This document shows positions 35,601 through 55,100 of a DNA stretch of 64,000 nt, piece after piece (position 1 is the first letter of the stretch; each line of letters opens with the position of its first letter). The stretch comes from an uncultured Anaerolineaceae bacterium (GTDB taxonomy: Bacteria; Chloroflexota; Anaerolineae; Aggregatilineales; Phototrophicaceae). The notes below the pieces were generated by a model, which saw only the letters and a program-made list of their open reading frames with translations, did no database searches and was not told the DNA's origin. The stretch covers positions 18,334 through 82,333 of the forward strand of contig CAZQIY010000005.1 of NCBI GenBank assembly GCA_964593565.1, read 5' to 3'. The position numbers and the translations under genes were made by a program.

Positions 35601-36602
35601 TTGAAGCACTGGCGAATCGGGTTGCTGGGGGCGGTGGTCAGCCTGCTGGCGCTCTATTTCATGCTTTCTCAGGTCGATCTGGCGCGGCTGGCACAGGCGC
35701 TGGCGGCGGCGCGTTATATTTATGTACTGCCTTCGGCGCTGCTGCTGCTGGCCGGGCTGCTGACTCGTGCGGTACGCTGGCGGGTGCTGCTCAATGGCGC
35801 GCTGCCGCTGGGGCGGGCCTTCAGCATTACCAATGTGTCCTATCTGGTCAACGGCCTGCTGCCGCTGCGCATGGGCGAGGTGGCCCGGGCGGTGCTGGCT
35901 TCGCGTGTAGAGCCGCCGGTGCCGGTGTTAAAATCGGCCAGTTCGATCATCGTCGAGCGCATGCTGGATTTGCTGGCGGTGCTGCTGCTGCTGGGGTTCG
36001 CGCTGGCGTTTGTCCCGGCGCTGCCAGATGATTATCGCACGGCGGCGATTTTCACGGTGCCGCTGCTGCTGGTCGGCTTTGGGGTGCTGGTGACGCTGGC
36101 AGCCCGGCGGGCGCATCTGCACCGTCTGCTGGCGTGGATCGTACAGCGTGCGCCCCTGCTTCAGCAGCGGAACCCGGCCGCGTGGCTCGATCATTTTCTG
36201 GATGGCCTGCTGCCCCTCACACAGCCGGCGCTGCTGCTGCGGGCGCTGTTCTGGACCGTGATAAGCTGGGGTTTTTCGCTGGCAGCCGGGTATATACTCA
36301 TGTTTGCCTTTTATGACCGGGCAGACTGGGCGGCGGCGGCGCTGTTTATCGCGGCGGCGGCGTTCGTTATCGCGGTGCCGGCGGTGCCGGGCAATATCGG
36401 CACCTATGAATGGGCGATCATGCTGGCCATGAGCGCGATGGGTTACGGCGCGGCCACAGACCCGGTGAATGTCTCCTTTGCGGTGGTGGTGCATGCGCTC
36501 AATCTGGCGCTTTATGCGGTGATGGGCACGCTGGGGTTTGTGCAGGAAGGCATCAGTCTCAACCGCCTGACCCGCGAAGTAGAAGGTTATCGCGCAACAT
36601 AA
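35601..36602 (+). CDS. UPF0104 / lysylphosphatidylglycerol-synthase-TM-domain family membrane protein (flippase-like)
   Basis: 333 aa, TTG start. KHWRIGLLGAVVSLLALYFMLSQVDLARL, RAVRWRVLL and PGNIGTYEW motifs. Eight TM helices. Confidence 0.8.
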   Translation: MKHWRIGLLGAVVSLLALYFMLSQVDLARLAQALAAARYIYVLPSALLLLAGLLTRAVRWRVLLNGALPLGRAFSITNVSYLVNGLLPLRMGEVARAVLASRVEPPVPVLKSASSIIVERMLDLLAVLLLLGFALAFVPALPDDYRTAAIFTVPLLLVGFGVLVTLAARRAHLHRLLAWIVQRAPLLQQRNPAAWLDHFLDGLLPLTQPALLLRALFWTVISWGFSLAAGYILMFAFYDRADWAAAALFIAAAAFVIAVPAVPGNIGTYEWAIMLAMSAMGYGAATDPVNVSFAVVVHALNLALYAVMGTLGFVQEGISLNRLTREVEGYRAT

Positions 36603-36618
36603 CATATACAGGAACGCA

Positions 36619-37797
36619 ATGTCCGCGAACGGTAAATCGTCGGAAAAACTGAAAATTCTGATCGCCTTGCTGTATTACTTTCCGCACCGCACCGGGCTGA
36701 CTATTCATGTGCAGCGGGTGGCGGAGGAACTGGCGCGGCGCGGGCATGAGGTGACGGTGCTGACGGCGCGCTATCACATCTCGCTGCCGCGTGACGAGGT
36801 GATTCATAACGGCGTGCGCATCGTCCGGTTGTGGACTCCGCCGGTGGCCGTCAGCCGGGGCATGGTGATGCCGGCTTATCCCTGGGCGGCGCTGGGGCTT
36901 ATGCTGCAGCATGATGTGGTGTGGGTGAATGTGCCCATGCTGGAAACGGCGCTGCTGGCGGTGCTGGCACAGCTTACCGGGCGCCCGATTGTCGCCACCC
37001 ATCATGGCGACCTGATCCTGCCGGAAGGCCGCCTGAACCGGTTTATCACAGATACCATGTTCTGGATGTACAAATTCATGGCACGGCGCAGCGCCCGCCT
37101 GATCGCCTACAGTCAGGATTATGCCGAGCATTCCTACTATCTGCGCCCCTTTCTGGATAAGGTGACGGTGATCTCTCCGCCGATTCACATGCCGCTGCCA
37201 GACCCGCAGCGGGTGGAGGCGTGGCGCAGCGAATGGGCCAACAACGGCGGCCCGGTGATCGGGTTTGCCAGCCGCTTTGTCGAGGAAAAACGGCCGGACC
37301 TGCTGCTGCGCGCCCTGGAGATTATCAACCAGCGCTACCCTAATGCGCGGCTGGTATTTGTGGGGGAGTATCCCATCAAGTACGAAAAGGAATTCTGGGA
37401 TCAGAACCAGGGGCTGCTGGAACAATACAAGGATCAACTGGTGTTCCCCGGCCTGATGACCGATATGCAGGCCATGGCGGATTTTTACGCCGCCTGCGAT
37501 GTGCTGGCGCTGACCAGCGATTCTGAATGTTTCGCGCTGGTACAGGTGGAGGCGATGCTGTGCGGCACGCCGGTGGTCATGACGGATATTCCGGGTGGGC
37601 GCGTGCCCGTGCGCGAAACCGGCATGGGCCGGCTGGCCAGGGCGGGCGACTGGCGCTCGATTGGCGAGGCGATTGTGGAGGTGCTGCAAAATCGCGAGCA
37701 GTACATCCGCCCGCGTGAAGTTATCGAGGCGAAGTTTTCCTTCCAGGAAACGGTGGATCGTTACGAGAAGGTATTCTATGACCATGCCCGACGCTGA
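36619..37797 (+). CDS. glycosyltransferase family 4 (GT-B fold, group 1)
   Basis: 392 aa. KILIALLYYFPHRTGLTIHVQRVAEELARRGHEV and the E-x7-E region ECFALVQVEAMLCGTPVV. Confidence 0.88.
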   Translation: MSANGKSSEKLKILIALLYYFPHRTGLTIHVQRVAEELARRGHEVTVLTARYHISLPRDEVIHNGVRIVRLWTPPVAVSRGMVMPAYPWAALGLMLQHDVVWVNVPMLETALLAVLAQLTGRPIVATHHGDLILPEGRLNRFITDTMFWMYKFMARRSARLIAYSQDYAEHSYYLRPFLDKVTVISPPIHMPLPDPQRVEAWRSEWANNGGPVIGFASRFVEEKRPDLLLRALEIINQRYPNARLVFVGEYPIKYEKEFWDQNQGLLEQYKDQLVFPGLMTDMQAMADFYAACDVLALTSDSECFALVQVEAMLCGTPVVMTDIPGGRVPVRETGMGRLARAGDWRSIGEAIVEVLQNREQYIRPREVIEAKFSFQETVDRYEKVFYDHARR

Positions 37798-38653
37798 CGG
37801 CGGCGTTGATCCGCAGGTGATCGCACATATGACGCGCAACGAGGCCGACATGGCCTTCAAAAAGCGCGTCCAGACCATCTTTGAATGGATCGACCCGCGC
37901 GATGACAGCCTGATTCTGGATATCCCCTGTGGGCGGGGGTTTTACCTGAACATGTTTCGCTACGTCAGCCGCTGCCAGCTTGTGGGGGCGGACCTGGATT
38001 GGGACGTGATGCTGAAGGCGCAGCGCAACGTCGGCCATCTGCCAGACATTATGCTGAATCACGCCAGCATTTATGCGCTGCCTTACCCGGACAACACCTT
38101 TGACGGCGTTATTCTTTCTGAAGTGCTGGAACATCTGGAGGACGACGTGGCTGGCCTGCGCGAAGCCTTTCGCGTGCTCAAACCGGGTGGCGTGGCGGCT
38201 GTCACCGTGCCCAATGCCAATTATCCCTTCTGGTGGGACCCGATCAACAGGACGCTGGAAACCGTCTTTGGCACGCACATCAGCCGGGGGCCGCTGGCGG
38301 GCATCTGGGCCAATCATGTACGCTTATATACACAGGAACAGTTGGAAGCCAGCGTGCAGGCATCCGGCCTGATGATTGAGGAAACGCGTGCCTTTACGCA
38401 TTATTCGTTTCCGTTTATCCATAATATAGTGTATGGCCTGGGCAAACCGCTGCTGGAAGCCGGCATGATGCCGGAAACGCTGGCGAACGCGGCGGACCGC
38501 ACCACCTTCGACAAAAACAATGGCAGCCTGCTGAACCCGGTGAACCTGGGCCTGAGAGTGTTTAATTATTTTGACCGACGCAACGCCATCAGCGAACCGC
38601 CGGGCCGGTCTACTGTGAACCTGGCCGTGAAGGCGCGCAAACCGGAACGTTAG
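37778..38653 (+). CDS. class I SAM-dependent methyltransferase
   Basis: Internal ATG at 37778 (MTMPDADGG...) of track ORF 37595..38653. It overlaps the GT4 3' end by 20 nt. SAM motif ILDIPCGRGFY, then LPYPDNTFDGVILSEVLEHL and LKPGGV. Confidence 0.82.
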   Translation: MTMPDADGGVDPQVIAHMTRNEADMAFKKRVQTIFEWIDPRDDSLILDIPCGRGFYLNMFRYVSRCQLVGADLDWDVMLKAQRNVGHLPDIMLNHASIYALPYPDNTFDGVILSEVLEHLEDDVAGLREAFRVLKPGGVAAVTVPNANYPFWWDPINRTLETVFGTHISRGPLAGIWANHVRLYTQEQLEASVQASGLMIEETRAFTHYSFPFIHNIVYGLGKPLLEAGMMPETLANAADRTTFDKNNGSLLNPVNLGLRVFNYFDRRNAISEPPGRSTVNLAVKARKPER

Positions 38654-41176
38654 ATGACTGACATTTCTTCCTTACCGCCAGAAGCTTCTGACAACGAACC
38701 ACAGGCCACCCCGGACCGCAGCTTTGAGGATTTCACGCTGGCTGAAGCAGTCGGCCAGATGCGGCGGATGCCAGCGGCGACTCTGCGTGCGCTGCGTCAG
38801 GTGGCGCGTGCGCCGCGTGGGGCCACAGCCGCGCCAGTCGCGCTGACGCCTGCTGTGCGTGCACCTGTACAGCGGCGGCAGAAGGGTCGTGCGCAGCCAG
38901 TGCCGGATGCTCAGCGGCGCGAGGCGGCGTTGTTCGGCCTGCGCATGACGGCGTTTCTGGTGGCATGGTGGGGGGCGGGCATCCTGGCCAATACCCCCCT
39001 GCGCAGCGAGGAAGTCGCGCTGGCGGCGGGCGCGCCGTTTCTGCTGGGCGGGTTTCTGATCTGGCTGGGGTCGGAACTGTATGCCGACTGGCCGGAAATC
39101 CAGCGCCGCCGGGCACAGCGCAGGCAGGCCGCAGAAGCATCGAGCGCGGCGGATGCTGTCGATGTGCCCGCAGACACAGCGCAGCCAGAGCCGGTGGTGG
39201 ATGAGCAGCCGCCACCGGACAGCCCGGCGTTCCCGGCGTGGGCCGGGCTGCATCCTGCGCGGGTGATGACCGGGCTGGCGGCGGTGCTGCTCAGCCTGCT
39301 GGCGCTGGTGTTTACGGCCAATAATCAGTTTACTTTCATCGGTTTCTGGGGCTGGATCGCCAGCATTGTCCTGTGGGTGACGACGCTGGCGCCGCAGGAT
39401 AACGGCCCGCTGGTGTGGGTGCGCGGCGCACTGGTGGCGGTGCGCGGGATTCGCTGGCGCAGCGGGGTGGTGCTGGCGCTGCTGGCGATTCTGCTGCTGG
39501 GGGCGTGGTTCCGCCTGTCGGCGCTGGATACCGTGCCGCCGGAGATGACCAGCGATCATGTGGAAAAAATCCTGGATTCGCATGGGGTGCAGCAGGGCCA
39601 GCATAACGTCTTCTTTGCCAACAACGGCGGGCGCGAACCGTTCCAGATGTACGCGATGGCGCTGTTTGCCCAGCTTCCTGGCCTGGGCATGAACCATTAC
39701 ACGCTGAAGCTGCTGTCCGTGCTGGAAGGCCTGATTTCGATTGTGGCGCTGTTCTGGATGGGGCGCGAGATCGTCGGGCAGGAAAACCGGCGTTTTGGCA
39801 ATCTGGTGGGGCTGCTGCTGGCGGCGCTGGTGGCGGCCAGCTACTGGCATACTGTGCTCAGCCGCCTGGGGCTGCGCATCGTCCTGACCACGCTGGTGAC
39901 CGCCGCGCTGCTGATATTTCTGGCGCGGGCCATGCGCCACAACCGGCGCATCGATTTTATCAAGGCCGGGCTGGTGCTGGGCTTCGGGCTGTATGCCTAT
40001 CAGGCCGTGCGGATGCTGCCGGTGGTCGTGACGGTGGGCGTAGGGCTGGCATTTCTGTTCCACGCCCGCACCTGGCTGGATCGCCGGCGCTATCTGCTCA
40101 ACTTTGGGGTGCTGGTGCTGGTGGCCTTTGTCGTGTTTGTGCCGCTGTTTGGCTACTGGCTGCAATACCCGCAGGATTTCTGGCGGCGGACCCAGGGGCG
40201 TCTGCTGGGCGATGATCTGATCGTCACCACCGATGCCGCCGGGAACCTTGTAGAACGATCCGCCACCGTGCAGGAACGTCTGCAGGCCTTCAGCGAGAAT
40301 ATGCCGATTCTGGCGAATAACTTGCGTACCGCGCTGCTGATGTTCAACTGGAAGGGCGATGTCGCCTGGATCAATGGCGACCCGAACGCGCCCGCGATGG
40401 ATGTATTTACCGGCGCGCTGCTGATTGTCGGGCTGGCGGCGTGGCTGGCGCGCATGCTGCGGCGGCGCGATGTCTTTGACTGGCTGGTTCCGCTGGCGCT
40501 GCTGATCATGCTGCTGCCGTCGGCGTTGTCGATTGCCTATCCGGTGGAGAATCCCAGTCACACCCGCACCAGCGGCGCGCTGCCAGAGGCCTACCTGATC
40601 GCGGCGCTGCCACTGGCGCTGATGGTACAGTCGATAGTGCGGATGGCCCCTGGAACGCGGGGGCGGGTGGCATCTGTCGGGCTGGCGGTGGTCGTCCTGC
40701 TGGGGGCTTATAGCCAGAATTCCCACACCTATTTTGTGGGGCATCATGAGGCCTATATTGAATCCTCGCTGCCGTATACCGAAGCCGGGCGCGTGCTGCG
40801 CGGCTTTGCAGACAGCACCGGCAGTTATGGAAACGCCTTTATGATTGGCTTTTCCTACTGGTGGGATCATCGCGCACTGGGCATTGAGGCCGGGCGCCCG
40901 GACTGGCCCAACGGCATCATTTCTGCGGATAACCTGAAGGAATTCTTACGCATCGCTGCCCAGCGCACGGATGCCTACCAGCTTGACCCGGACCGGGACC
41001 TGATGTTCTTTTTTGCCACTGAGGATGAGAACACACAGGCGATTCTGGCACAGCATTTCCCCCAGGGGCGGACGGTGATCCGGCAGAGCTATCAGCCGGA
41101 TGACACCTATAACCTGTATCTGGTGCCGGCCCTGGGTGCCGATGGCTTCCTGCGGTGGCTGATGGAAGCCGGATGA
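38654..41176 (+). CDS. GT-C fold membrane glycosyltransferase (family 39-like), 840 aa
   Basis: ATG directly follows the methyltransferase TAG. After ~200 aa of N-terminal low-complexity sequence and TM helices comes the loop LDTVPPEMTSDHVEKILD, then GGREPFQMY, about 12 TM helices and a C-terminal soluble domain. Confidence 0.75.
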   Translation: MTDISSLPPEASDNEPQATPDRSFEDFTLAEAVGQMRRMPAATLRALRQVARAPRGATAAPVALTPAVRAPVQRRQKGRAQPVPDAQRREAALFGLRMTAFLVAWWGAGILANTPLRSEEVALAAGAPFLLGGFLIWLGSELYADWPEIQRRRAQRRQAAEASSAADAVDVPADTAQPEPVVDEQPPPDSPAFPAWAGLHPARVMTGLAAVLLSLLALVFTANNQFTFIGFWGWIASIVLWVTTLAPQDNGPLVWVRGALVAVRGIRWRSGVVLALLAILLLGAWFRLSALDTVPPEMTSDHVEKILDSHGVQQGQHNVFFANNGGREPFQMYAMALFAQLPGLGMNHYTLKLLSVLEGLISIVALFWMGREIVGQENRRFGNLVGLLLAALVAASYWHTVLSRLGLRIVLTTLVTAALLIFLARAMRHNRRIDFIKAGLVLGFGLYAYQAVRMLPVVVTVGVGLAFLFHARTWLDRRRYLLNFGVLVLVAFVVFVPLFGYWLQYPQDFWRRTQGRLLGDDLIVTTDAAGNLVERSATVQERLQAFSENMPILANNLRTALLMFNWKGDVAWINGDPNAPAMDVFTGALLIVGLAAWLARMLRRRDVFDWLVPLALLIMLLPSALSIAYPVENPSHTRTSGALPEAYLIAALPLALMVQSIVRMAPGTRGRVASVGLAVVVLLGAYSQNSHTYFVGHHEAYIESSLPYTEAGRVLRGFADSTGSYGNAFMIGFSYWWDHRALGIEAGRPDWPNGIISADNLKEFLRIAAQRTDAYQLDPDRDLMFFFATEDENTQAILAQHFPQGRTVIRQSYQPDDTYNLYLVPALGADGFLRWLMEAG

Positions 41177-41249: not shown

Positions 41250-44200
41250 ATGGCTGAAGCAAGTTTCGCGGCAGAAGGGACCGGACGGCGGGCGGGCTGG
41301 CTCAGCATCACCCTCAGCGATGTGGTGGTGGGGGTGCTGCTGGTGCTGGTGATGCTGGTGGGCGGGTATTTCCGCTTTGTGGGGCAGAACTGGGACGATT
41401 TTACCCACCTGCACCCGGACGAGCGCTTCCTGACGGATGTCGCGTCCTCTATCGGCGGGACGCTGCGCCCCAGCCATCCCTCATCCACCGACCAGCAGGC
41501 GCAGATTGACCTGTGCATGAGCCGCTACCCGAATACCGGCGGCATCGGCGGCTATTTTGACGCGGAATGTTCCACCCTCAACCCGCACAACGCCGGCAAG
41601 GGCCTGTATGTCTATGGGACGCTGCCGTTGTTCGCGGCCCGCGCGGCGGGCGATTTACTGGTCCAGCAGACCGGCGATACCTCGTTAAACAGTTACAGCG
41701 GGGTGCATCTGGTCTGGCGCAGCCTGTCCGCGCTGGCGGAGATGGTGGTGATTCTGGCCGTCTTTGCCATGGGCTACGAACTGCATGGTAAATGGGTCGG
41801 GCTGGTGGCCGGGGCGTTGTATGCCGCCGCCGTCTTTTCGATTCAGGCTTCGCATTTTGGCACGGCAGATGCCATGACCAACGCCTTTGCCGCGCTGGGG
41901 CTGCTGTTCGCGGTGCGGGTGCAGCTTCGCGGCGGACTGCTGGATTATGCATTTTTCGGGCTGGCGTTTGGGGCGGCCCTGGCCAGCCGGGTGAATATTG
42001 CACCGCTGGGCGGGGTGATTGTGCTGGCGGCCATGGTGAACGCGCTGCCGGTGCTGGATCTGCGGCTGGCGGCGGGGCTGCGCTGGCGGCTGCTGCGTCA
42101 GCACGCCCTGGGGCTGATGCTGGCAGGCATCCTGACCGTGCTGGTGTTCCGCATTTTTAACCCATATGCCTTTATGGGGCCGGGGTTCTTTGGCCTGGTG
42201 CCCAACCCGCGCTGGCTGGCGGATATTGCCCAGGCGCGGCATCTGGTCAGCGGCGCGGCGGAAATGCCGCCTAACTGGCAGTGGGTGGGCCGCACGCCCT
42301 ATCTGTTTGCGCTGAACAACATGGTGCTGTGGGGCATGGGGATCGCGCTCGGCCTGACGGGGCTGGCCGGGTGGGTGTGGTCTGGCTGGCGGCTGCTGCG
42401 CGGCAGCGCCGGCGCGCTGCGTAACCTGCTGCCGGTGATATGGTTTCTGGTGTATTTTGGCTGGCTGGGGGCCAACTGGGTCGCCACCATGCGCTATTTT
42501 CTGCCGCTGTATCCGGTCTTTGCGCTGCTGGCGGCCTGGCTGCTGGGCGAACTGGTGCAGCGCGCCCAGGGGCGGCCTGTGCCCCGCCTGTTGGCGGGCG
42601 CGTTCATGGTGCTGGTGGTGGGGTTCACCTTCCTGTGGGCGGCCATGTTCACCAATATTTACCGCCACCAGCTTACCCGCGTGCAGGCCAGCCACTGGTT
42701 CTGGGAGCAGGCACCGGGCGATTTTGCCATGCGGGTCGAAGGCGCGCGGCCGGATACCCCGCTGATCAATATCGCGGTGAGCAACGGCCCGGGGCAGGGG
42801 TATGACCTGCTGGTGAAGGCCTCTGCCCACTATGAAGAAAGCCCGTTTGAATATCTGTTCACCGCCCCGGCCACCGGCACAATCAGCAGTATATATGCGC
42901 CGCACCTGGGCGATAGAGACGATGACCCGGAACCGGAAACCGTCCGCGCGGCGATTCAGGCGGTGGATACGGGCGAAATTCTGGCGGAAGTGACGCTGAC
43001 CGCCAACCTGACACGCGCCAATCATGTGCTGGGCGATGCCTATGACATGCAGTTGGATTCGCCAGCAGCCGTGACCGGGGGGCAGCAGTATCGCTTCATC
43101 TTTGAGGTGATCGAGGGCGGGCCAGTGGTCAGCGGCGGTTCTGTGGTGTCGCATGAAGGCGGCTGGGATGATCCGATCCCCTATACCGTCTGCACGCTGC
43201 CACCGGGCATCAGTCTGGCGGATGATCCGCCGCCGGGCCTGCTGAACGCCCATAACTGCAATGGGCGCACGGCCTGGAGCGCGTTGATTGTGGGCTATGA
43301 CATGCCGCTGGCGACAGAGGATGAGGCGTATAAGCGCGATCTGATGCTGCAGGCGCTGCGCGACAGCGATTACCTGACCATCAGCAGCAACCGGTTTTAC
43401 GACTCGCAGAACCGCATCCCCACCCGCTGGCCGATGACCAACGCCTATTATGACAAACTATTCGCGGGCGAACTCGGCTTTGAGCTGGCAGCGCTGTTCC
43501 AGGAAACCTTCGAGCTGGGGCCGCTGCGTATTTCTGACCAGCACCTGCCGATTTACGACAGCCCGGCCTGGCTGAACGAATTTGAGGCGGAAGAAGCCTT
43601 TCATGTTTACGATCATCCGGTGGTGTTTGTGTTCCGCAAAACGGCGGACTACGATCACCGGCAGGTCGAGAACTTCTTCCACTCCGTCCCGCTGAACCGG
43701 GCTACAGCCGCCGGATCGAACCCGGTGGAAAACTGCCCGTCGGTCTTTATGCAGCCCGGCGGGGGCGGCTGCGATACCACCCTGATTGATACCTTCACCC
43801 TGTCCGCGCTGGATACAGACCCGGCCCCCACCCAGCTCATGCTGACGGACGAACGGCGGGCGATTCAGGAAACGAATGGCAGTTGGCACGAACTGTTTGA
43901 CCGCGACAGCATCATCAACACCCAGCCAGTGCTGACGGTGGCGGTCTGGTGGCTGGCGATTATGGTCATTGGCTGGGTGACGTGGCCGCTGCTGTTCGGG
44001 TTGTTCCCGGCGCTGGCGGATCGTGGCTATGCGGTGGCCAAGCTGGCCGGGCTGGTGCTGATCGGCTGGAGCACGTGGTATGCCGCCAGCGGCGGGCTGG
44101 CGTTGTGGTCGCAGGGCGGCATCCTGCTGGCGATGGCGCTGCTGGCGGTGGCTGGTCTGGTGGTGGTATGGCGGCACCGCGATTCGTTTTTTGGCTATGT

Positions 44201-46508
44201 GCGCACCTACTGGCGGCGGATGCTGGCCGTCGAGATCATCATGGTGCTGGCCTTCCTCGGCTTTCTGGCAGTGCGCCTGACCAACCCGGACCTGTGGCAC
44301 ACCAGCTATGGCGGCGAAAAGCCGATGGATTTTGCCTATTTTAACGGCGTGCTGCGCAGTACGATCTTCCCGGCAATCGACCCCTGGTACGCCGGCGGCT
44401 ACCTGAATTACTACTATTTCGGGTACGTGATCGTGGGGGTTCCGGTGCTGCTGCTCAAGGTTGTGCCCTCGGTAGCCTACAACCTGATCCTGCCGACTCT
44501 GTTCGCTGTCACCGGCATCGGCGCGTTTGCGGTGGCGTTCAACCTGGTGCATCACTGGCAGGAACGGCGGCAGACGGCCGACGACGAACCGGGCGACAGG
44601 CCGGGCTGGCGGCGCATGGGCAACCCCTGGATTGCGGGTATTGTCGCGCTGCTGCTGGCGGTGGTGCTGGGCAACCTGGATACGCCGCGCGTGCTGGGCA
44701 ACGGGCTGGCAGACCTGGGCGGTTATGTGCCGCCGCGTGGGCTGGCCGACTTTCTGATCGATGAACAGATGGCGCAGCGGGGCACGATAGAGGCGTCGAC
44801 GGAAATGGAACTGCGCCAGCGTGCTGCACGGAATCACCTGGGCGACCGGCTGCGGTATGAGGTACATAATTCCGTATCGCTGGTCAGCGGGCTGGTGCGT
44901 GGGGTCGGGGCGGCGCTTTCCGGCCAGTCGCTGCCGATTGGCTCTAACCGCTGGTTCTGGGCGCCCACCCGCGTGATTATGGAAACCCCCGGCGTGGAAG
45001 GTAACGCCATCACCGAAATACCGTACTTTACCTTCCTGTATGGCGACCTGCACGCGCATATGATCGCCATGCCGATGCAGTTATTCGTGATGGCTTTCCT
45101 GCTGCACGAACTGCTGGCGGCGGGGCGCGATGGGCGCAGCGGGCGGATGCGATGGCTGGCGCTGGGGCTGGGGGCGATGTTTGTCGGCCTGCTGCGGGCG
45201 ACCAATACCTGGGACTGGCCCACATTTATGCTGCTGGGGGCGCTGGGGCTGGGCTATGCCTGGTGGCTGGCATGGCGGCACATTGACCGGCATTCGCTGA
45301 TTGATCTGGCGCTGCGGGTGGGCGGTTTTGTCGTGCTGACCTTTGCGGCGGCGCTGCCCTTTACCACGTGGTACGCGGCGGTGTATGGCAGCATTCAGCC
45401 CTGGGAAGGCGGCAAAACCCCGCTGTGGATTTACTTCGACCTGCACGGCCTGTTCCTGTTCCTGCTGTTCTGTCTGCTGGTGTGGGAAACTGCCCGCTGG
45501 TTCAGCAGCGTGTACGTGCGCGATCTGCGCGGCATGTGGCCGCTGCTGGTGGCGCTGCTGGTGGCGGTGGTCACGGTGCTGGCGGCCGGGGCGGCGCTGG
45601 CGATAATGGGCTATCAGGTGGCGCTGGTGGTGCTGCCGCTGCTGCTGTGGATGGCGGTGCTGTTCCTGCGGCCGGGCCAGTCGCGGGCGATGCAGTTTGT
45701 GCTGGCGCTGGCCGGGCTGGCGCTGGGCCTGACTCTGGGCGTGGAATTTGTCGTGCTGGCGGGGGATATTGGCCGGCAGAATACGGTGTTCAAGTTCTAC
45801 ATTCAGGCCTGGATGCTGTTCAGCGTGGCGGGTGGGGCGGCCTTCGCGTGGCTGTTTGAAAGCGCCGCAGGCTGGCGCCCCAGAACGCGCTATGTGTGGT
45901 ACGCAGCGGCGGGGATGCTGTTCACCGTGGCCGCGCTGTATCCCATCATGGCGACGCGTGCCAAAGCGCTGGAACGTATGGCGCCGGATATGCCGTTTAC
46001 GCTGGATGGCATGGATTACATGCAGTACGCCAGCTACTACGATGGCCAGGAAAGCATCCCGCTGTCAGATGATTACCAGATGATTCGCTGGCTGCAGGAA
46101 AATATCCCCGGCACGCCCACCATTGTGGAGGCGCAGGACTGGTGGGAATATCGCTGGGGCGGGCGCGTGGCGATCTATACCGGCATGCCAACGATCCTGG
46201 GCTGGCGCTTCCACCAGACGCAGCAGCGCACCTTCGAGCAGTTGGTGACGATGGTGAACCAGCGCCGCGCCAACGTCAACGGCTTTTACTCCACGACGGA
46301 TATTGATACCGCGCTGGACATCATCGACTTTTATGGCATCCGCTATATCATCGTCAGCGGGCTGGAACGCGCCTACTATCCGCCGGAAGGCCTGCAAAAG
46401 TTCGAGCAGATGGCGGAGCGTGGGCTGCTGGAGAAAGTGTACGAACAGGGCCGCGCTACAGTGTATAAAGTGGCAGACAATGCGCAGGTTGCACAGGTGA
46501 TGGGTTAG
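41250..46508 (+). CDS. giant (1752 aa) polytopic membrane protein: N-terminal HPDERF GT-C-like module + soluble insert + C-terminal YYY (DUF2298/TIGR03662-like) module
   Basis: HPDERF at 41412-41429. C-terminal half carries GGEKPMDFAYFNGVLRS...DPWYAGGYLNYYYFGY (YYYFGY at 44409-44426). It aligns with the next gene along its length, including the tail ...GWRFHQTQQR...IRYIIVSGLER. Confidence 0.8.
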   Translation: MAEASFAAEGTGRRAGWLSITLSDVVVGVLLVLVMLVGGYFRFVGQNWDDFTHLHPDERFLTDVASSIGGTLRPSHPSSTDQQAQIDLCMSRYPNTGGIGGYFDAECSTLNPHNAGKGLYVYGTLPLFAARAAGDLLVQQTGDTSLNSYSGVHLVWRSLSALAEMVVILAVFAMGYELHGKWVGLVAGALYAAAVFSIQASHFGTADAMTNAFAALGLLFAVRVQLRGGLLDYAFFGLAFGAALASRVNIAPLGGVIVLAAMVNALPVLDLRLAAGLRWRLLRQHALGLMLAGILTVLVFRIFNPYAFMGPGFFGLVPNPRWLADIAQARHLVSGAAEMPPNWQWVGRTPYLFALNNMVLWGMGIALGLTGLAGWVWSGWRLLRGSAGALRNLLPVIWFLVYFGWLGANWVATMRYFLPLYPVFALLAAWLLGELVQRAQGRPVPRLLAGAFMVLVVGFTFLWAAMFTNIYRHQLTRVQASHWFWEQAPGDFAMRVEGARPDTPLINIAVSNGPGQGYDLLVKASAHYEESPFEYLFTAPATGTISSIYAPHLGDRDDDPEPETVRAAIQAVDTGEILAEVTLTANLTRANHVLGDAYDMQLDSPAAVTGGQQYRFIFEVIEGGPVVSGGSVVSHEGGWDDPIPYTVCTLPPGISLADDPPPGLLNAHNCNGRTAWSALIVGYDMPLATEDEAYKRDLMLQALRDSDYLTISSNRFYDSQNRIPTRWPMTNAYYDKLFAGELGFELAALFQETFELGPLRISDQHLPIYDSPAWLNEFEAEEAFHVYDHPVVFVFRKTADYDHRQVENFFHSVPLNRATAAGSNPVENCPSVFMQPGGGGCDTTLIDTFTLSALDTDPAPTQLMLTDERRAIQETNGSWHELFDRDSIINTQPVLTVAVWWLAIMVIGWVTWPLLFGLFPALADRGYAVAKLAGLVLIGWSTWYAASGGLALWSQGGILLAMALLAVAGLVVVWRHRDSFFGYVRTYWRRMLAVEIIMVLAFLGFLAVRLTNPDLWHTSYGGEKPMDFAYFNGVLRSTIFPAIDPWYAGGYLNYYYFGYVIVGVPVLLLKVVPSVAYNLILPTLFAVTGIGAFAVAFNLVHHWQERRQTADDEPGDRPGWRRMGNPWIAGIVALLLAVVLGNLDTPRVLGNGLADLGGYVPPRGLADFLIDEQMAQRGTIEASTEMELRQRAARNHLGDRLRYEVHNSVSLVSGLVRGVGAALSGQSLPIGSNRWFWAPTRVIMETPGVEGNAITEIPYFTFLYGDLHAHMIAMPMQLFVMAFLLHELLAAGRDGRSGRMRWLALGLGAMFVGLLRATNTWDWPTFMLLGALGLGYAWWLAWRHIDRHSLIDLALRVGGFVVLTFAAALPFTTWYAAVYGSIQPWEGGKTPLWIYFDLHGLFLFLLFCLLVWETARWFSSVYVRDLRGMWPLLVALLVAVVTVLAAGAALAIMGYQVALVVLPLLLWMAVLFLRPGQSRAMQFVLALAGLALGLTLGVEFVVLAGDIGRQNTVFKFYIQAWMLFSVAGGAAFAWLFESAAGWRPRTRYVWYAAAGMLFTVAALYPIMATRAKALERMAPDMPFTLDGMDYMQYASYYDGQESIPLSDDYQMIRWLQENIPGTPTIVEAQDWWEYRWGGRVAIYTGMPTILGWRFHQTQQRTFEQLVTMVNQRRANVNGFYSTTDIDTALDIIDFYGIRYIIVSGLERAYYPPEGLQKFEQMAERGLLEKVYEQGRATVYKVADNAQVAQVMG

Positions 46509-46514
46509 GGATAC

Positions 46515-49061
46515 GTGATCTTCGAGTGGTTGGCCCGCGAGGGATGGATCGTTTTTAACTGGTGGCTGCTGGTGACGCTGGCTGGGGTGGCGGCGCTGCC
46601 GCTGACCACGCGCCTGCTGGGCGGCCTGCCGGATAAAGGCTATACGCTGGCCCGAGCAGTGGGTTTGCTGCTGGTGGGGTTTGTGTTCTGGCTGCTGGCC
46701 AGCCTGGGCTTTTTGACCAACGCGCCCGGCAGCCTGATTCTCTCCTGGCTGATTGTGCTGGTGGCCGGGATCATCGTTCATTTCCGGCATCCGCAGCGCT
46801 TTGACTGGCGCGGCTGGTGGCAGCAGAATCGCCCGGTGGTGCTGGTGGGCGAGGTGCTGTTTGTGGCACTGCTGATCTTTTTCGCCCTTTTCCGCGCCCA
46901 TATCCCGGACCTGACCGGCACCGAAAAGCCAATGGAACTGGCGTTTATGAGCGCCGTGCAGCGCAGCGAAATCTTCCCGCCCAACGACCCCTGGCTTTCC
47001 GGTTATGCCATCAGCTACTACTACTTTGGCTATGTTATTTCCGCGGCGCTGTCGATGCTCAGCGGCATCAGCAGCACGGTGGGCTTTAACATGACAATCA
47101 CGCTGTTGTTTGCGCTCACCGGGCTGACGGCCTACGGCGTGGCCTATAACCTGGCGGCGTCTCGTGCCCGGCGCGACCAGCCAGCGGCCCCGGCGGCGCT
47201 GATCTGCGGACTGCTGGGCATGGCCTTTGTGGTGCTGCTGGGCAATTTCCAACTGCCGCTGATCGAAATGCCCTACCAGAACCGCATCGCCAGCGAGTCT
47301 TACCTCAGCTTCTGGGGGCAGGATGACCGCCTGATTCCCAAGCCATCGCTGCCAGAAGACGCAGGCGCGATAGCCCCGCAGAACTGGGATTTCTGGTGGT
47401 GGTTCCGCGCCAGTCGGGTGCTGACGGATACCAACCTGGATGGCACGCTGATCGGGGTGCAGCCCATTGACGAATTCCCGGCCTTCAGCTTCGTGCTGGC
47501 GGATGTGCATCCGCACGTGCTGGCGCTGCCCTTTGCCATGCTGGCGCTGGGGCTGGCGCTGAATCTGGTGCTGACGGAGCGCGACCCCACCCGGCAGGAA
47601 GTGGTATTTTATGCGCTGGCGCTGGGTGGGCTGGTGTTCCTTAACACCTGGGATGGCCCGATCTATATGGTCGTGCTGGTCGGGGCGGATGCGGTGCGGC
47701 GGCTGATGCGCAGCGGCAGCGGCAGGCTGACCGGGCGCGATTGGTGGGCGCTGCTGCGGCTGGGGCTGGCGCTGGGCCTGCTGACTCTGGTGTTTTATTT
47801 TCCGTTCTTCATCAGCTTTCGCTCTCAGGCTTCGGGTGTGCTGCCCAACCTGCTGCATCCGACCTACTTCCCGCAGTATTTCATCATGTTTGGCCCCTTC
47901 ATGCTGATTCTGGCGGCATTTCTGTTCCTCGAAGTGCGGCTGGCGGCGGGGCGCATGAACTGGCGGCTGGGGCTGGTGGTGGCGGTTGGCCTGTGGCTGG
48001 GGCTGGTGTTGTTGATGCTGCTGCTGAGTATCATGGCGGCGCTGATACCGGCCCAGCGCGATCTGGTCACCGGGTTTATCGAGCAGTACGGCGGCCTGCA
48101 GGCGGTCCTGCCGGCGCTGCTGTCGCGGCGTCTGGCGCACATCCTGACCTCGCTGGTGCTGCTGGCCGGGGTGGCGGTGGTGGTGGCGCGCCTGTTCCCG
48201 CGTGTACCATCGCTGGAAGAAGTGGAGGATGCGCCCACCGCGGCGCGGCAGGTGATTGCCTACCCGGCGGCGACGGGGTTTGCGCTGCTGCTGGCCGGGG
48301 CAGGCATCGTGCTCACCCTCGCGCCGGATTATGTCTACCTGCGCGATAATTTTGGGGTGCGCATCAACACCATTTTTAAGTTCTACTATCAGGCATGGCT
48401 GATGTTTGGTATCGCCAGCGCCTATGGTGTTTACGTCATTGCAGCGGACCTGCGCCTGCGGGATCGTTTCCGCGCGGCGCGGGTGGTCATGGTGACAGCG
48501 ACAACGGTGGTGGTGCTGCTGGGGCTGATGTACTCGGTGCTGGGCTTCCATAACCGCATGTTCATCGAATCGGGGCGGGCATCTGCCAACACACTGACTC
48601 TGGATGGCGGGCCGACGACGGTCAGCGCCGATGATTACGCCGCTATCATGTGCTTCGATGCGCTTATCGAAGGCGATGATGTGGTGGTGCTGGAAGCGGC
48701 GGACCCCGGCTCTGCCTACAACATTACCGGCAAGTGGGGGCGCGTGGGTATGCTGACCGGCGTGCCAATTGTGCTGGGCTGGCAGAATCATGAAGGGCAG
48801 TGGCGCGGCCCCACCTATGCCCAGACAGTAGGCACGCGCCCGCAGGATATTGACCGCATCTATACTGATCTGCGCTGGGATGTGGTCAGCCCGCTGGTGG
48901 CGCAGTATGGCATCGATTATATCTTCTTTGGCGAGACCGAACGCAGCAAGTATGGCGCCCAGGCCGAAGAAAAATTTGCCCAGAATCTGGCGGTGGTGTG
49001 CGAGCGCGGGTCGAGCCGCTTCTACCGGGTGGATTCCGGTAATCTGGTGGCACGTGGATAA
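46515..49061 (+). CDS. YYY-motif polytopic membrane protein (DUF2298/TIGR03662 Chlor_Arch_YYY-like), 848 aa
   Basis: GTG start 6 nt after the upstream stop. GTEKPMELAFMSAVQRSEIFPPNDPWLSGYAISYYYFGY (YYYFGY at 47016-47033), more than 15 TM helices, and tail GWQNHEGQWR...IDYIFFGETER. Confidence 0.8.
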   Translation: MIFEWLAREGWIVFNWWLLVTLAGVAALPLTTRLLGGLPDKGYTLARAVGLLLVGFVFWLLASLGFLTNAPGSLILSWLIVLVAGIIVHFRHPQRFDWRGWWQQNRPVVLVGEVLFVALLIFFALFRAHIPDLTGTEKPMELAFMSAVQRSEIFPPNDPWLSGYAISYYYFGYVISAALSMLSGISSTVGFNMTITLLFALTGLTAYGVAYNLAASRARRDQPAAPAALICGLLGMAFVVLLGNFQLPLIEMPYQNRIASESYLSFWGQDDRLIPKPSLPEDAGAIAPQNWDFWWWFRASRVLTDTNLDGTLIGVQPIDEFPAFSFVLADVHPHVLALPFAMLALGLALNLVLTERDPTRQEVVFYALALGGLVFLNTWDGPIYMVVLVGADAVRRLMRSGSGRLTGRDWWALLRLGLALGLLTLVFYFPFFISFRSQASGVLPNLLHPTYFPQYFIMFGPFMLILAAFLFLEVRLAAGRMNWRLGLVVAVGLWLGLVLLMLLLSIMAALIPAQRDLVTGFIEQYGGLQAVLPALLSRRLAHILTSLVLLAGVAVVVARLFPRVPSLEEVEDAPTAARQVIAYPAATGFALLLAGAGIVLTLAPDYVYLRDNFGVRINTIFKFYYQAWLMFGIASAYGVYVIAADLRLRDRFRAARVVMVTATTVVVLLGLMYSVLGFHNRMFIESGRASANTLTLDGGPTTVSADDYAAIMCFDALIEGDDVVVLEAADPGSAYNITGKWGRVGMLTGVPIVLGWQNHEGQWRGPTYAQTVGTRPQDIDRIYTDLRWDVVSPLVAQYGIDYIFFGETERSKYGAQAEEKFAQNLAVVCERGSSRFYRVDSGNLVARG

Positions 49062-50963: not shown

Positions 50964-51025
50964 GGATTTTCCGGGCAGGGTGTGTATAAACGGGGTAGTT
51001 ATTTTTGGACAACGGCGGTCTGAGT

Positions 51026-51607
51026 ATGCAGGCAATAGATCAGGCAATTGAGCGCTGTCTTGCGGGCGATCAGCAAAGTTATGCAACCCTGTACGATGAA
51101 TTTGCAGGCGGCATCTATCGCCTGTGTTACAGCCTTCTGCTCAACCGGCAGGACGCCGAAGACGTGACGCAGGAAACATTTGTCTATGCGTTCCGCAACC
51201 TGCGGCGCTATGATCCGCAGCGCGCCGCCTTCAGGACGTGGCTGTACACCATCGCCATCAGCCGCTGCCGCAATCTTTACCGGCGCAAGCGGCCCATGAT
51301 GATGGACATCGCGCAGATGTTGCAGCTCCGGCTGTACAGCCCAAAATCGGAAACGCCGGAAAACGCGCTGTCTGCACAGGATGCCCGCAGCACGCTGGAA
51401 TCCGCCCTGGCGGCGCTTTCGCCCCGCCTGCGCGAGGCGGTGGTGCTGCGCTATGGGCACGGGCTGATGTATCGTGAAATGGCCGAAATTATGAACTGCC
51501 CGCAAAAGACCGCAGAAAGCCGGGTGCGGCTGGCGCACGATGCGCTGCGCGGCCTGCTGCAGGCGGAAGGTCCAGGGTTGCTGGAAGAACTGCTGACGAG
51601 TTCGTAA
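51026..51607 (+). CDS. ECF-type RNA polymerase sigma-70 family factor
   Basis: ATG at 51026 (the track uses TTG 51005). Region 2 DAEDVTQETFVYAFRNLRRYDP...FRTWLYTIAISRC. Region 4 LSPRLREAVVLRYGHGLMYREMAEIMNCPQKTAESRV. Confidence 0.9.
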   Translation: MQAIDQAIERCLAGDQQSYATLYDEFAGGIYRLCYSLLLNRQDAEDVTQETFVYAFRNLRRYDPQRAAFRTWLYTIAISRCRNLYRRKRPMMMDIAQMLQLRLYSPKSETPENALSAQDARSTLESALAALSPRLREAVVLRYGHGLMYREMAEIMNCPQKTAESRVRLAHDALRGLLQAEGPGLLEELLTSS

Positions 51608-51629: not shown

Positions 51630-52142
51630 ATGTTATGGCGATTGCTGGCTTGTCGTTACTATCATTCAAAACTGGATGCCTTTGTCGATGGCAGACTGTC
51701 TCCGCGTGCGCGGCGGCGTCTGGCGCGGCACATGGATCACTGCCCGGCCTGTTACCGGGCCTATACCCGGCGGCGCGATCTGCATCAGGACCTGCGGCAG
51801 ACTGTGCCTCTGGTCGGGCGCGATCATGCGCCGGATTTTGACCGAATCTGGGGCGCGGTGCGTACCGAGCTGCCCCAGCCCCGGCGGCCTCAGTTTCGTT
51901 ATGGGGTGGCGGTGCTGCTGCTATTACTGGCGCTGCTGGTGCCGTTTACGATGGGCAATCATGAACTGACGCGGGTGATTCCGGAGCATCCTGTGCCACA
52001 TGCGGAACCTTCGACCGAGACACCGGAGCGCACCGATGAGCCACAGATGATGGCTACGGTGGCGGCGTCCTCGACCATGGCGAGCAGTCTGGCACAGGAG
52101 ACTGCCCCCCCGACTTTGCCGGAACCCGATGGGAATCAATAA
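51630..52142 (+). CDS. anti-sigma factor (zf-HC2 type), single-pass membrane protein
   Basis: 170 aa. Zinc-binding motif RHMDHCPACYRAY, TM YGVAVLLLLLALLVPFTM, and a short Pro/Thr/Glu-rich external tail. Lies 22 nt after the sigma gene. Confidence 0.8.
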   Translation: MLWRLLACRYYHSKLDAFVDGRLSPRARRRLARHMDHCPACYRAYTRRRDLHQDLRQTVPLVGRDHAPDFDRIWGAVRTELPQPRRPQFRYGVAVLLLLLALLVPFTMGNHELTRVIPEHPVPHAEPSTETPERTDEPQMMATVAASSTMASSLAQETAPPTLPEPDGNQ

Positions 52143-52157
52143 GGGCGAGTATTTGGC

Positions 52158-55100
52158 ATGGCAACGACGATTGAACATCCCTCACAGACAGAGGCGGTCA
52201 GCCCGCTGAACCGTTTTCTGCTGACTTCTCAGGCCGTAAACTGGGAAATCATCGCCTACACGGTCATCTTCCTGCTGGCGATCTTCACGCGCTTTTACAT
52301 GCTGGGCGATCGGGTGATGAGCCACGACGAAAGCCTGCACACCCGCTACTCGTACAATCTGTACGCAGAAGGCGACTTCCAGCACACCCCGCTGATGCAC
52401 GGGCCGATTCTGTTCCACATCACCGGCTTTTTCTACTTCCTGTTTGGCGACAACGATTTTACGTCGCGCATTTATCCGGCGGCGCTGGGGGTGGCGATGG
52501 TGCTCATGCCGCTGCTGTTCCGCCGCTGGCTGGGGCGCACCGGGGCGCTGCTGGCGTCGATCATGCTGCTGATTTCCCCGATCATCCTGTATTACAACCG
52601 CTACATCCGGCACGATACGCCGTCGACGTTCTTTGCCCTGCTGATGCTGTATGCCATCATGATGTACCTGGCCGGGCCAGAGACGCAGCGACGGCGCGCC
52701 CACTGGCTCTATCTGCTGGCCGGGGCCATGATCGGCAACCTGGGGTCGAAGGAAACCTCGTTTATTTACATCGCCATTTTCGGCAGTTTCCTCACGCTGT
52801 ACTGGCTGGTGCGGCTGGGGCAGCATCTGTGGCGCTGGCGGGGCAGGACGCTGTTTTATTTCCTGACAGTGGGCATTCTGCTGGCGGGGGTGGCCGCGCT
52901 TGGCATTTATGTGGTCTGGTCAATTGTCACACCGGAGCGCGCAGCAGAGGCGGCCCAGCTCAACGGTGGCTGGCTGGCGAGCGTGGATTCCGCCACCTTT
53001 ATCCTGGGGACTCTGGTAGTGTTCGCGGTGGTGGTGGTCGTCATGCTGGCGACTCTGCTGTGGGCGTTCCGCCGCAGCCAGGTTTCGATTCGCCGCAGCG
53101 ATGTTGTGGCGCTGGTGCTGATCGCTGTGATCGTCTGCGCAGGTCTGATCATTATTGAGGAACTGTCGCATGTCAGCCCGGCCAGTTCTGCGGAGACAGC
53201 CGCGCCTTCTGTGCCCGGCGAGGAAATGGTCGAAACCGGCGTTGGACTGCGCTCTCTGCCGCTGATTATCGCCTGGGTGCTGGCCGCGCTGGTGGTGCTG
53301 GGGGTGCTGGCCTCCTGGCGGCTGGGCTGGTGGCAGACGCTGCACCAGTTCCCGGAACTGGATATTCTCCTCGTCATGGGCACGCTGATTCTGCCCTGGC
53401 TGGCGCCGTTTATTATTACGGCGATGGGGGTGGTTGCCACAGATTATTCTACTGATGGCATTGTCCGCGCTGTGCTGGCGCTGATCCCGCTGGCCGCCAT
53501 TTCGATTACGGTCGGGCTGGTGTGGAACTGGCGGCGCTGGCTGGTGTGCGTGGCGATCTTTTACGCTATTTTCGCCTTTTTCTTTACGACTATGTTTACC
53601 AATATCAACGGCCTGGCCACCGGCGTGATCGGCAGTCTGGGCTACTGGCTGGAACAGCAGGGCGTGCGCCGGGGCAGCCAGCCGCAGTATTATTACCTGG
53701 CCCTGATTATGCCGTTTTATGAATTTCTGCCGGTGCTGGGCAGTATCCTGGCCATGTTCAGCGGCCTGTCCCTGTTCTGGGGCTACCGCCGCCGCCGTCT
53801 GGCAGAAGAAGAAGCAGGGCTGGCGCTGGCCAGCATCAATGGCGACGAGCCGCCGCTGGCGGATGCAGACGACCCGGAAGCTGAAATTCCCGCGCTCAGC
53901 GAACTGGTGGTGGACGCGCCATCTGAAACAGAGCCGGGGGTGGTGCCGGATGCATCGGCCTATATCGACGGAAAGCGTAAGGAACGGGCCGACTGGCTGG
54001 ATCGCCTGCCATTTCTGCTGTTTGTCAGTTGGTGGTCCATCCTCAACCTGGTGGGGTATACGCTGGCGGGCGAAAAGATGCCCTGGCTGGGCACCCATCT
54101 GACTCTGCCGCTGATCTTCCTGACGGGCTGGTACTTCGGCAGAATCTTCGAGCGCATCGACTGGCAGAAGTTCCGGCAGGGCGGCTGGTTGTATCTGGTG
54201 CTGCTGCCGCTGCTGTTTGTCACGCTGTTTCAGGTTATCATGCCGTTTATTTTTGGGCGCGGGCCGTTCGCCGGGCTGGAACAGGCGCAGTTGGCGCAGT
54301 CTGGCCAGTGGCTGGCGGTGGTGGCCGTCAGCGGCTTTGTGGTGCTGGCCATCTACCAGCTTGTCGAACGCACGGGCTGGCGGCATCTACGCGGCATGTT
54401 CGCGCTGGCGCTGTTTGGTTTCCTCAGCCTGCTGACGGCGCGCTCTGCCTTTATGGCCTCGTTCATCAACTATGATCTGGCCACAGAATATCTGGTGTAT
54501 GCGCACGCGGCCCCGGCGGTCAAAACGGTGCTTGATGACATCGAGGAAATGAGCCTGCGCACCACAGATGGCTATGACCTGAGCTTTGCCTACGATAACG
54601 AGGTATCCTGGCCATATAGCTGGTATTTCCGCAATTATCCTAACGCGCAGTACTTTGGCAGCAGCCCCAGCCGCCCGGTTATCGACAATTCTATGGCGGT
54701 GGTGGTAGGCGAGGCCAATCGCGCCGCAGTCGAACCGCTGCTGGAAGATCGCTTCTATCACTTCGAATATATCCGGCTGTGGTGGCCCATGCAGGATTAT
54801 TTCAACCTGACGCCGGAACGCCTGCTGAACGCGCTCGACTTTTCGCCGGATAACCCCAATGCCGCCCTGGTGCGGCGCGGCCTGTTTGATATCTGGTGGT
54901 CGCGCGATTACACCACCTATGGGCAGGCGGTGTCGCGCAGCTTTGATGTCACGCGCTGGCCGGTGTCGGACCGGATGCATTACTACGTGCGCAAGGATGT
55001 CGCTTCTGAAATCTGGACTCTGGGTGTGGGCGAAGGCAGCGTTGCCAACCCGCTGGATGAACTGGAGGTCAACGTCTGTAATGCCAACTGGCAGTTGATG

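Follow-up and report, generated by a model that had tools for sequence, protein, structure and literature searches.

A stretch of 64,000 nucleotides (hereafter the window) of contig CAZQIY010000005.1, from the assembly GCA_964593565.1 of an uncultured Anaerolineaceae bacterium of the phylum Chloroflexota, has been analyzed around a gene that starts at position 41250. This gene encodes a protein of 1752 amino acids (aa), named P0001, in which two membrane modules are fused, and it is followed by the gene of an 848-aa paralogue of the second module (P0002). In the reading favored here, which is considered moderately likely, P0001 would be a tandem of two complete GT-C units acting on the outer side of the membrane in the assembly of an envelope glycoconjugate. 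Two other proteins encoded nearby are named P0003 (840 aa, PMT_2) and P0005 (Agl23 family with an NHL domain). The two main genes and the parts of the fusion protein are the following:

41250..46508, + strand: fusion gene P0001, 1752 aa; open reading frame with colinear full-length homologues at 50-77% identity
41250..42674, + strand: module 1, PMT_2-type GT-C with 11 transmembrane helices, residues 1-475, N-terminus inside; from Pfam, AlphaFold2 (AF2), Foldseek and topology
41412..41429, + strand: HPDERF, H55-F60, in the first outside loop of module 1; from conservation over 41 N-terminal halves
42675..43904, + strand: outside soluble domain of module 1, residues 476-885; from AF2 secondary structure and conservation
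43905..45965, + strand: membrane part of module 2, residues 886-1572, DUF2298/Chlor_Arch_YYY with 16 transmembrane helices; from hidden Markov models (HMMs), AF2 and topology
44316..44333, + strand: EKPMDF, E1023-F1028, in the first outside loop of the core of 13 transmembrane helices; E1023 in 49/49 modules
44409..44426, + strand: YYYFGY signature, Y1054-Y1059; from conservation over 49 modules
45015..45059, + strand: E1256-x-P-x-F-x5-D1266-x-H1268-x-H1270, at the end of the large outside loop; six residues in 49/49 modules
45774..45812, + strand: R1509-x-N-T-x-F-K1515-x3-Q-x-W1521, at the outside end of transmembrane helix 15; invariant or nearly so in 49 modules
45966..46505, + strand: C-terminal outside alpha/beta domain of module 2, residues 1573-1752; from the AF2 model
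46515..49061, + strand: P0002, stand-alone YYY paralogue, 848 aa; open reading frame with GTG start and orthologues at 50-78% identity

The GTG start codon of P0002 is located 6 nt past the TAG stop codon of P0001, with a G-rich stretch just before it. The order of parts in P0001 is an 11-helix PMT_2-type module, a folded outside domain of about 410 aa and a 16-helix DUF2298/YYY module, adding up to about 27 transmembrane helices (11 + 16) and not to the 30 or more proposed in an initial annotation made from the sequence. The motif positions given in that annotation were exact: HPDERF at 41412-41429 (residues 55-60), YYYFGY at 44409-44426 and, in P0002, YYY from 47016 (residues 168-170 of a YYYFGY at 168-173). 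Topology was derived from the AF2 helices, hydrophobicity and the positive-inside rule, applied over family alignments of 41 N-terminal halves and 49 YYY modules, the latter taken from three paralogue groups; the conservation counts given below refer to these alignments.

When residues 1-477 were scanned alone, Pfam PMT_2 (PF13231) was matched at residues 156-264 with 30.1 bits (gathering cut-off 26.1, E 6.5e-7). This match is absent from the listing when the full 1752-aa chain is scanned, and it is found precomputed on many P0001 homologues. The AF2 model of residues 1-890, obtained with the 41-sequence alignment, has a predicted local distance difference test (pLDDT) value of 83 and a predicted template-modelling (pTM) score of 0.80. 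All 36 PDB structures matched by the module 1 model in Foldseek at E <= 1e-3 are GT-C enzymes, including AglB (8.7e-8), EmbC (2e-6) and AftA (2e-4) as well as STT3, Pmt4, ArnT, ALG12/9 and PglB. Lysine and arginine residues in the short loops sum to 8.9 on the inside and 1.6 on the outside; from this asymmetry and the AF2 helices, the soluble domain and the loop that carries HPDE (residues 44-148) are both predicted to be outside. Within this loop, P56, D57 and E58 are invariant (41/41) in sequences down to about 34% identity and H55 is kept in 39/41. The first outside loop is where PMT- and ArnT-type enzymes have their catalytic acids, and D57-E58 is, from its conservation, a candidate catalytic acid pair. 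Further invariant residues of module 1 are R42, W48, R157, R301, R348, R415 and Y416, with H202 kept in 40/41.

The soluble insert that had been placed between the two modules is real (residues about 476-885) and predicted to be well folded; it is not a linker, and it constitutes the own outside domain of unit 1, because it remains with the N-terminal module in a genome (G394, described below) where the protein is naturally split. In the AF2 model it is formed by a beta-sandwich (about 492-650), with pLDDT above 90 at residues 490-640, followed by an alpha/beta domain (about 672-812). Its conserved residues are W483, E636, W639, R715, R722, E782, Y787, D788 and H789, of which R715, E782, Y787 and D788 are kept in 41/41 sequences and H789 in 40/41. 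No Pfam family was matched by residues 476-885.

Module 2 belongs to the family DUF2298 (PF10060), which is matched with E 4e-105 (353 bits) by the C-terminal half of P0001, with E 2.5e-105 by its membrane part and with E 7e-105 (352 bits) by P0002, the cut-off being 27.8. The scores against TIGR03662 (Chlor_Arch_YYY) are 490.8 bits for P0001 and 460.4 bits for P0002 (cut-off 300.25). The predicted topology consists of three extra transmembrane helices and a 13-helix core, with both ends outside. Over the 49 modules, lysine and arginine residues in short loops sum to 18.1 on the inside and 3.7 on the outside. The first outside loop of the 13-helix core contains EKPMDF, DPW and YYY. Both loops singled out at first, HPDERF and EKPMDF, are therefore predicted to be outside by AF2 helices and the positive-inside rule, and the conserved acids of the two modules, D57/E58 (41/41) and E1023 (49/49), are found in the predicted first outside loops. 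In the signature, Y1054, Y1055 and G1058 are present in 49/49 modules and Y1056 in 48/49. The stretch R1509-W1521 was picked in the search of related loci as the most conserved of the family, and the motif E1256 to H1270, also judged from conservation, is a candidate metal or substrate site. Other residues that are invariant or nearly so are P1025, M1026, P1258, F1260, N1319, D1322, N1511, T1512 and F1514, and the C-terminal domain conserves H1655, R1672 and E1706.

The AF2 model of residues 870-1752 (pLDDT 88, pTM 0.90) gave as best Foldseek match the AglB of Archaeoglobus (AfAglB; 2e-5 to 2e-4 over 760-830 columns, the match at 2e-5 spanning about 815), followed by the C-mannosyltransferase DPY19 (8e-5), with ArnT weaker. 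These nearly full-length AglB matches bear on an alternative reading, regarded as unlikely, in which the cluster would be a protein-glycosylation machine that decorates secreted, S-layer or sheath proteins: the YYY proteins would be distant oligosaccharyltransferases of AglB/STT3 type or O-glycosyltransferases, and the PMT_2 module a protein O-glycosyltransferase. It is consistent with this alternative that the C-terminal domain of YYY separately matches the AglB-S2 globular domain 3vu0, although weakly (TM-score 0.52, E 0.03), and that module 1 falls in a family named for protein O-mannosyltransferases. Several results argue against it. The TM-scores of the YYY model are 0.26-0.29, and the WWDYG motif is not conserved in YYY: at the same place P0001 has DWWEYRWG and P0002 DPGSAYNITGKWG, so that even the 'WW' of P0001 is missing from its paralogue. 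Pfam STT3 was not matched by P0001 even at E up to 10, and the relationship of YYY to AglB/STT3 is undetectable at the sequence level in Pfam and in a profile search of the PDB. For module 1, GT-C enzymes that act on lipids or glycans (ArnT, EmbC, AftA, ALG9/12) score similarly.

The initial statement that P0001 unites two different GT-C-like modules has been confirmed. Both AF2 models match GT-C structures, and the modules are correctly called different because hhalign detected no significant similarity between the two membrane modules (probability 2.6%) or, with family sub-alignments, between the soluble domain of module 1 and the C-terminal domain of YYY (probability about 1%, E 0.05-0.07). 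Two candidate relationships were dropped on these results, namely that modules 1 and 2 are remote sequence homologues, a relationship that is not detectable, and that the distal part of the insert (…YLTISSNRFYDS…) is homologous to the YYY C-terminal domain (…RYIIVSGLERAYY…), a likeness noticed by eye.

The protein P0002 is a true paralogue of module 2, as had been suggested from its motifs. BLASTP aligned P0001 with P0002 in two segments, one of 439 columns with 27% identity (E 4e-40) and another of 290 columns with 30% identity (E 6e-21) that takes in the C-terminal soluble domain; as sequences, the two proteins are similar far beyond chance, and they share the same HMMs. The orthologues of P0002, at 50-78% identity, equal those of the fusion protein in degree of conservation and are located on the same contigs. 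A maximum-likelihood tree of the 49 YYY modules was calculated, without an archaeal outgroup and with a midpoint root used for drawing only. A single branch (SH-aLRT 98) separates all 18 stand-alone copies from all fused ones, and on the fused side the second YYY copy carried by relatives of 2400-2700 aa forms a separate group. A YYY of the P0002 type as orthologue of that second copy was discarded, since the tree puts them apart. In diverse genomes a single fused YYY is accompanied by one or more stand-alone copies, adjacent or not. From this distribution and from the split on the tree, P0002 therefore looks like an old and separately maintained paralogue, and the stand-alone gene like the product of an old duplication, not of a recent tandem one. 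A YYY protein 55% identical to P0002 was also found in a contig titled 'uncultured Pleurocapsa sp.', a cyanobacterium (L049, CAZBPB010000023.1), which is probably a mis-binned Chloroflexota contig.

The distribution of the fusion has been determined by several searches. A word-indexed search with residues 1-890 revealed 841 homologues, and nearly all of the best 120 are proteins of 1720-1930 aa with PF10060 and often also PF13231. An exhaustive HMMER search with the N-terminal half over 1.84 billion representatives gave 3573 matches, 962 of them at E <= 1e-30. Among the best 150, every protein longer than 1500 aa that starts with the N module (N) continues with the soluble domain (S) and YYY; most of the shorter ones stop inside a module (S or YYY regions) and are therefore contig fragments. 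The relatives that carry names are metagenome-assembled genomes of Anaerolineae, Aggregatilineales and Phototrophicaceae. In a sample of 401 genomes across the phylum, the N-terminal half is present in 263, in frames mostly of 1450-1800 aa or 2500-2700 aa and without internal stops, and it is absent from families with small genomes (f15, 0/17; f19, 0/16; f27, 0/9; f30, 0/12). The N-S-YYY fusion is thus the default and conserved form of the family across Chloroflexota and not a layout special to this locus. The size of P0001, initially regarded as exceptional, is not so within its family, whose members reach 2300-2700 aa: P0260 (2315 aa) is a P0003-like PMT_2 protein followed by N, S and YYY, P0215 (2719 aa) is N with two YYY copies and tetratricopeptide repeats (TPR), and P0247 (2445 aa) is N with two YYY copies.

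These data also decide whether the single 5.3-kb frame could be an assembly or frameshift artefact that joins two genes. In its favor, one relative, G394, does encode the halves separately. The chance of such an artefact is practically negligible, and an artificial fusion is excluded for practical purposes, because the same colinear single frame recurs in hundreds of independent assemblies. One of the homologues, 76% identical, also has a length of exactly 1752 aa, the region of the junction forms a conserved and confidently folded domain, and no stops interrupt the frames of the sampled genomes. Comparing fused and split forms has shown that the fused form is the norm, G394 being the one natural split found. 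In this genome, one locus (L019, G394:C42:55000-68000) encodes a P0003-like PMT_2 protein of 767 aa, a YYY1-type protein of 829 aa and a YYY2-type protein of 834 aa, and the gene of the 783-aa N+S protein is located on a different contig (L020, G394:C58:29000-38000). The two halves are therefore autonomous units. Another candidate for a split form, P0057 (1005 aa, PMT_2 only), was rejected, as it ends 28 nt from the end of its contig.

The genes that surround P0001 and P0002 in the window are the following:

35601..36602, + strand: LPG_synthase_TM (UPF0104), flippase-like membrane protein; Pfam E 2e-43, same position in the related loci L004-L007
36619..37797, + strand: GT4 glycosyltransferase, cytoplasmic; Pfam, syntenic in related loci
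37595..38653, + strand: S-adenosylmethionine methyltransferase; Pfam, listed open reading frame overlapping the GT4 gene by about 200 nt
38654..41176, + strand: P0003, 840-aa PMT_2 GT-C protein; Pfam PMT_2 27.9 bits, syntenic, fused to the N+YYY chain in P0260
49110..50963, + strand: 617-aa weakly Agl23-like protein without the DE motif; TIGR03663 69 bits, below the 126-bit cut-off, syntenic
51005..51607, + strand: extracytoplasmic function (ECF) sigma factor; Pfam
51630..52142, + strand: zf-HC2 anti-sigma factor; Pfam
52158..56132, + strand: P0005, 1324-aa Agl23-family GT-C-like protein with a C-terminal NHL beta-propeller; TIGR03663 230 bits (cut-off 126), NHL E 2.5e-31, syntenic

The cluster order is retained in distant Anaerolineae in which the fusion protein is only 50-59% identical, with L25 and nusA as flanking genes, as in the window. 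The true start of the methyltransferase is probably near 37.8 kb, because its homologues have only 266-300 aa. The ECF sigma/anti-sigma pair is present in L005 and L006 and absent in L007, and it is an optional insertion. In L005 (5486-6563) the GT4 gene is called in two pieces of 131 and 247 aa, probably due to a frameshift or sequencing error. The 617-aa protein has LSEPEA where its paralogue has SHDESL, and it may be a non-catalytic partner because its position is kept in related loci. The partner family TIGR03663 occurs in 284/401 genomes versus 263/401 for the N-terminal half; at the family level the two distributions are near identical, both being absent from f19, f27 and f30.

TIGR03663 is the family of Agl23, described in a report on Haloarcula as a putative hexose-P-dolichol flippase with lipid-linked oligosaccharide translocation activity in vitro (PMC11182771). 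Agl23 is also connected there with either the use or the flipping of hexose-P-dolichol (PMC11182771, citing Lu 2020). According to the same report, Agl23 affects N- and O-glycosylation, and its role as flippase or transferase is still debated (PMC11182771). The effect on glycosylation, together with an NHL propeller on P0005 that could bind proteins, can be counted in favor of the protein-glycosylation alternative. The flipping activity is more relevant to another possibility, namely that the YYY proteins are not transferases at all and serve as carriers, flippases, scaffolds or proteins of polymerase-ligase type, passing lipid-linked intermediates on to the actual GT-C enzymes, with the fusion tethering a helper to the PMT_2 enzyme. 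TIGR03663 offers a precedent, being GT-C-like in sequence yet reported to be associated with flipping and to be active in a flipping assay (PMC11182771). In addition, the acid of YYY at the first-loop position is E instead of D, its transmembrane helices include three extra ones, and no activity is reported in the literature for DUF2298/TIGR03662. A helper role is nevertheless judged distinctly improbable: YYY has invariant outside clusters of E, D, H, R and K residues and a conserved outside domain, as expected of an outside-acting enzyme, and its Foldseek matches at E <= 1e-3 are all GT-C transferases.

According to the favored reading, that of two outside-acting GT-C units in tandem, synthesis would begin inside the cell, where the GT4 enzyme and the methyltransferase would produce a primer for export by proteins of the UPF0104 and Agl23 types. 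Unit 1 would be a PMT_2/GT39-like transferase with the invariant D57-E58 in its first outside loop, its outside domain (about 410 aa) probably holding the acceptor glycan. Unit 2 has the general layout of AglB/STT3-type enzymes, with E1023, E1256/D1266/H1268/H1270 and R1509/K1515 as invariant residues. At the outer face, each of the two units would use polyprenyl-phosphate-linked sugar donors to extend one and the same envelope glycoconjugate, and P0002, P0003 and the two Agl23-like proteins would act together with them. The overall scheme would be formally like the mycobacterial route from phosphatidylinositol mannosides (PIM) to lipomannan (LM) and lipoarabinomannan (LAM), or like arabinan assembly. 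Consecutive action of both modules on one substrate, first suggested by the fusion itself, is plausible, as it is consistent with the other fusions of cluster neighbors in P0260 and P0215. Within this reading, the data establish the architecture, family membership, fold class, conservation, synteny and paralogy; the catalytic residues, the donors, the acceptor and the order of action are inferred.

Several points weigh against this interpretation. No polyprenyl-phosphate sugar synthase is encoded within the cluster. A sequence-profile search of the PDB at E up to 1 found no solved relative, and the Foldseek TM-scores of the two AF2 models are low (0.26-0.35), so that only the GT-C fold class is secure. 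The fusion is not obligatory, N+S and YYY1 being separate and unlinked in G394, and the acceptor could be a protein instead of a glycan or lipid. The literature contains no experimental function for any DUF2298/TIGR03662 member, only incidental table entries. With regard to the donor, elsewhere in the genome of the window (G000:C45:9293-10258, L103, minus strand) there is a UbiA-family gene whose score exceeds the cut-off for decaprenyl-phosphate phosphoribosyltransferase (NF008978, 222 versus 207 bits). It adjoins a GHMP kinase gene, has no linkage to the cluster and may supply a polyprenyl-P-pentose donor.

TIGR03662 and PF10060 already cover the family together with its long fused forms, and homologues are named 'DUF2298 domain-containing protein' or 'glycosyltransferase family 39 protein' at NCBI. 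The locus of the window is an ordinary member of the system, and the interest lies in the family and not in this instance. DUF2298/YYY comprises thousands of clusters, is found in roughly two thirds of the sampled Chloroflexota genomes and is among their largest proteins, in a host group of poorly understood, mostly uncultured filamentous bacteria. The GT-C fold, the invariant residues predicted to lie outside and the fixed cluster together provide a concrete and testable hypothesis for envelope building. A wider proposal, which is doubtful and is put forward only tentatively, is that YYY/DUF2298 would be a new GT-C family of very large size whose fold is a distant relative of that of AglB/STT3, and that it would form with the PMT_2 unit and Agl23 partners an outside-acting glycan-transfer machine common to Chloroflexota and Euryarchaeota, making the major envelope glycan of Anaerolineae. 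If so, YYY might be in haloarchaea and methanogens the missing enzyme that uses the Agl23-dependent hexose-P-dolichol. A contig search for archaeal YYY loci, intended to examine adjacency to agl23, gave only Chloroflexota among its best 80 loci. The results as a whole point to tractable archaeal carriers of the YYY family: TIGR03662 and TIGR03663 are both detected in the control genomes of Haloferax volcanii and Methanosarcina acetivorans. Within Chloroflexota, Chloroflexus aurantiacus is a species mentioned in the description of TIGR03662.

Compared with the catalogued families, P0001 and P0002 are far above the curated cut-offs of TIGR03662/PF10060 and have the YYYxG motif, and the family co-occurs with TIGR03663 in Chloroflexota. 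The long class in the description of TIGR03662 is characterized by additional sequence at the N-terminus, a duplicated YYY and TPRs. P0215 fits this class, with two YYY copies and TPR, and P0247 has two YYY copies. In contrast, P0001 has a single YYY copy and no TPR, its second YYY being a separate gene, and P0002 and the second YYY copy of the long class are on opposite sides of the branch with 98% support.

The YYY unit has its best Foldseek match among the AglB/STT3/PglB enzymes (GT66). It resembles them in its predicted core of 13 transmembrane helices, whose first outside loop contains an acidic residue and a later one further acidic residues and His, and in a C-terminal alpha/beta domain located outside. 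It differs in its three extra N-terminal helices and in having the N-terminus outside. Module 1 resembles the PMT/ArnT-type enzymes (PMT_2; GT39/GT83) in its score above the PMT_2 gathering value, its 11 predicted transmembrane helices, the D-E pair in the first outside loop and the structure matches to Pmt4 and ArnT. It differs from them in having no MIR domain, in its outside domain of beta-sandwich and alpha/beta parts without a Pfam family, and in its fusion to a second enzyme-like unit. Two cluster neighbors belong to or resemble the family of the Agl23 (TIGR03663) of Haloarcula hispanica, which is a partner and not a homologue of either module of P0001.

The mycobacterial and corynebacterial route to PIM, LM, LAM and arabinogalactan uses the GT4 enzymes PimA/B and then the GT-C enzymes PimE, MptA/B, EmbA-C and AftA-D. 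The cluster differs from it in being found in another phylum, and in the genome of the window the gene resembling decaprenylphosphoryl-phosphoribose (DPPR) synthase is unlinked to the cluster. No Pfam match to the Emb/Aft families (GT53/GT85; Arabinose_trans and related HMMs) was obtained for P0001, and the similarity is structural and limited to module 1, with EmbC and AftA among its structure matches. The shared logic consists of a cytoplasmic GT4 enzyme, a flippase-like protein and several GT-C enzymes, the latter with outside domains of sugar-binding type.

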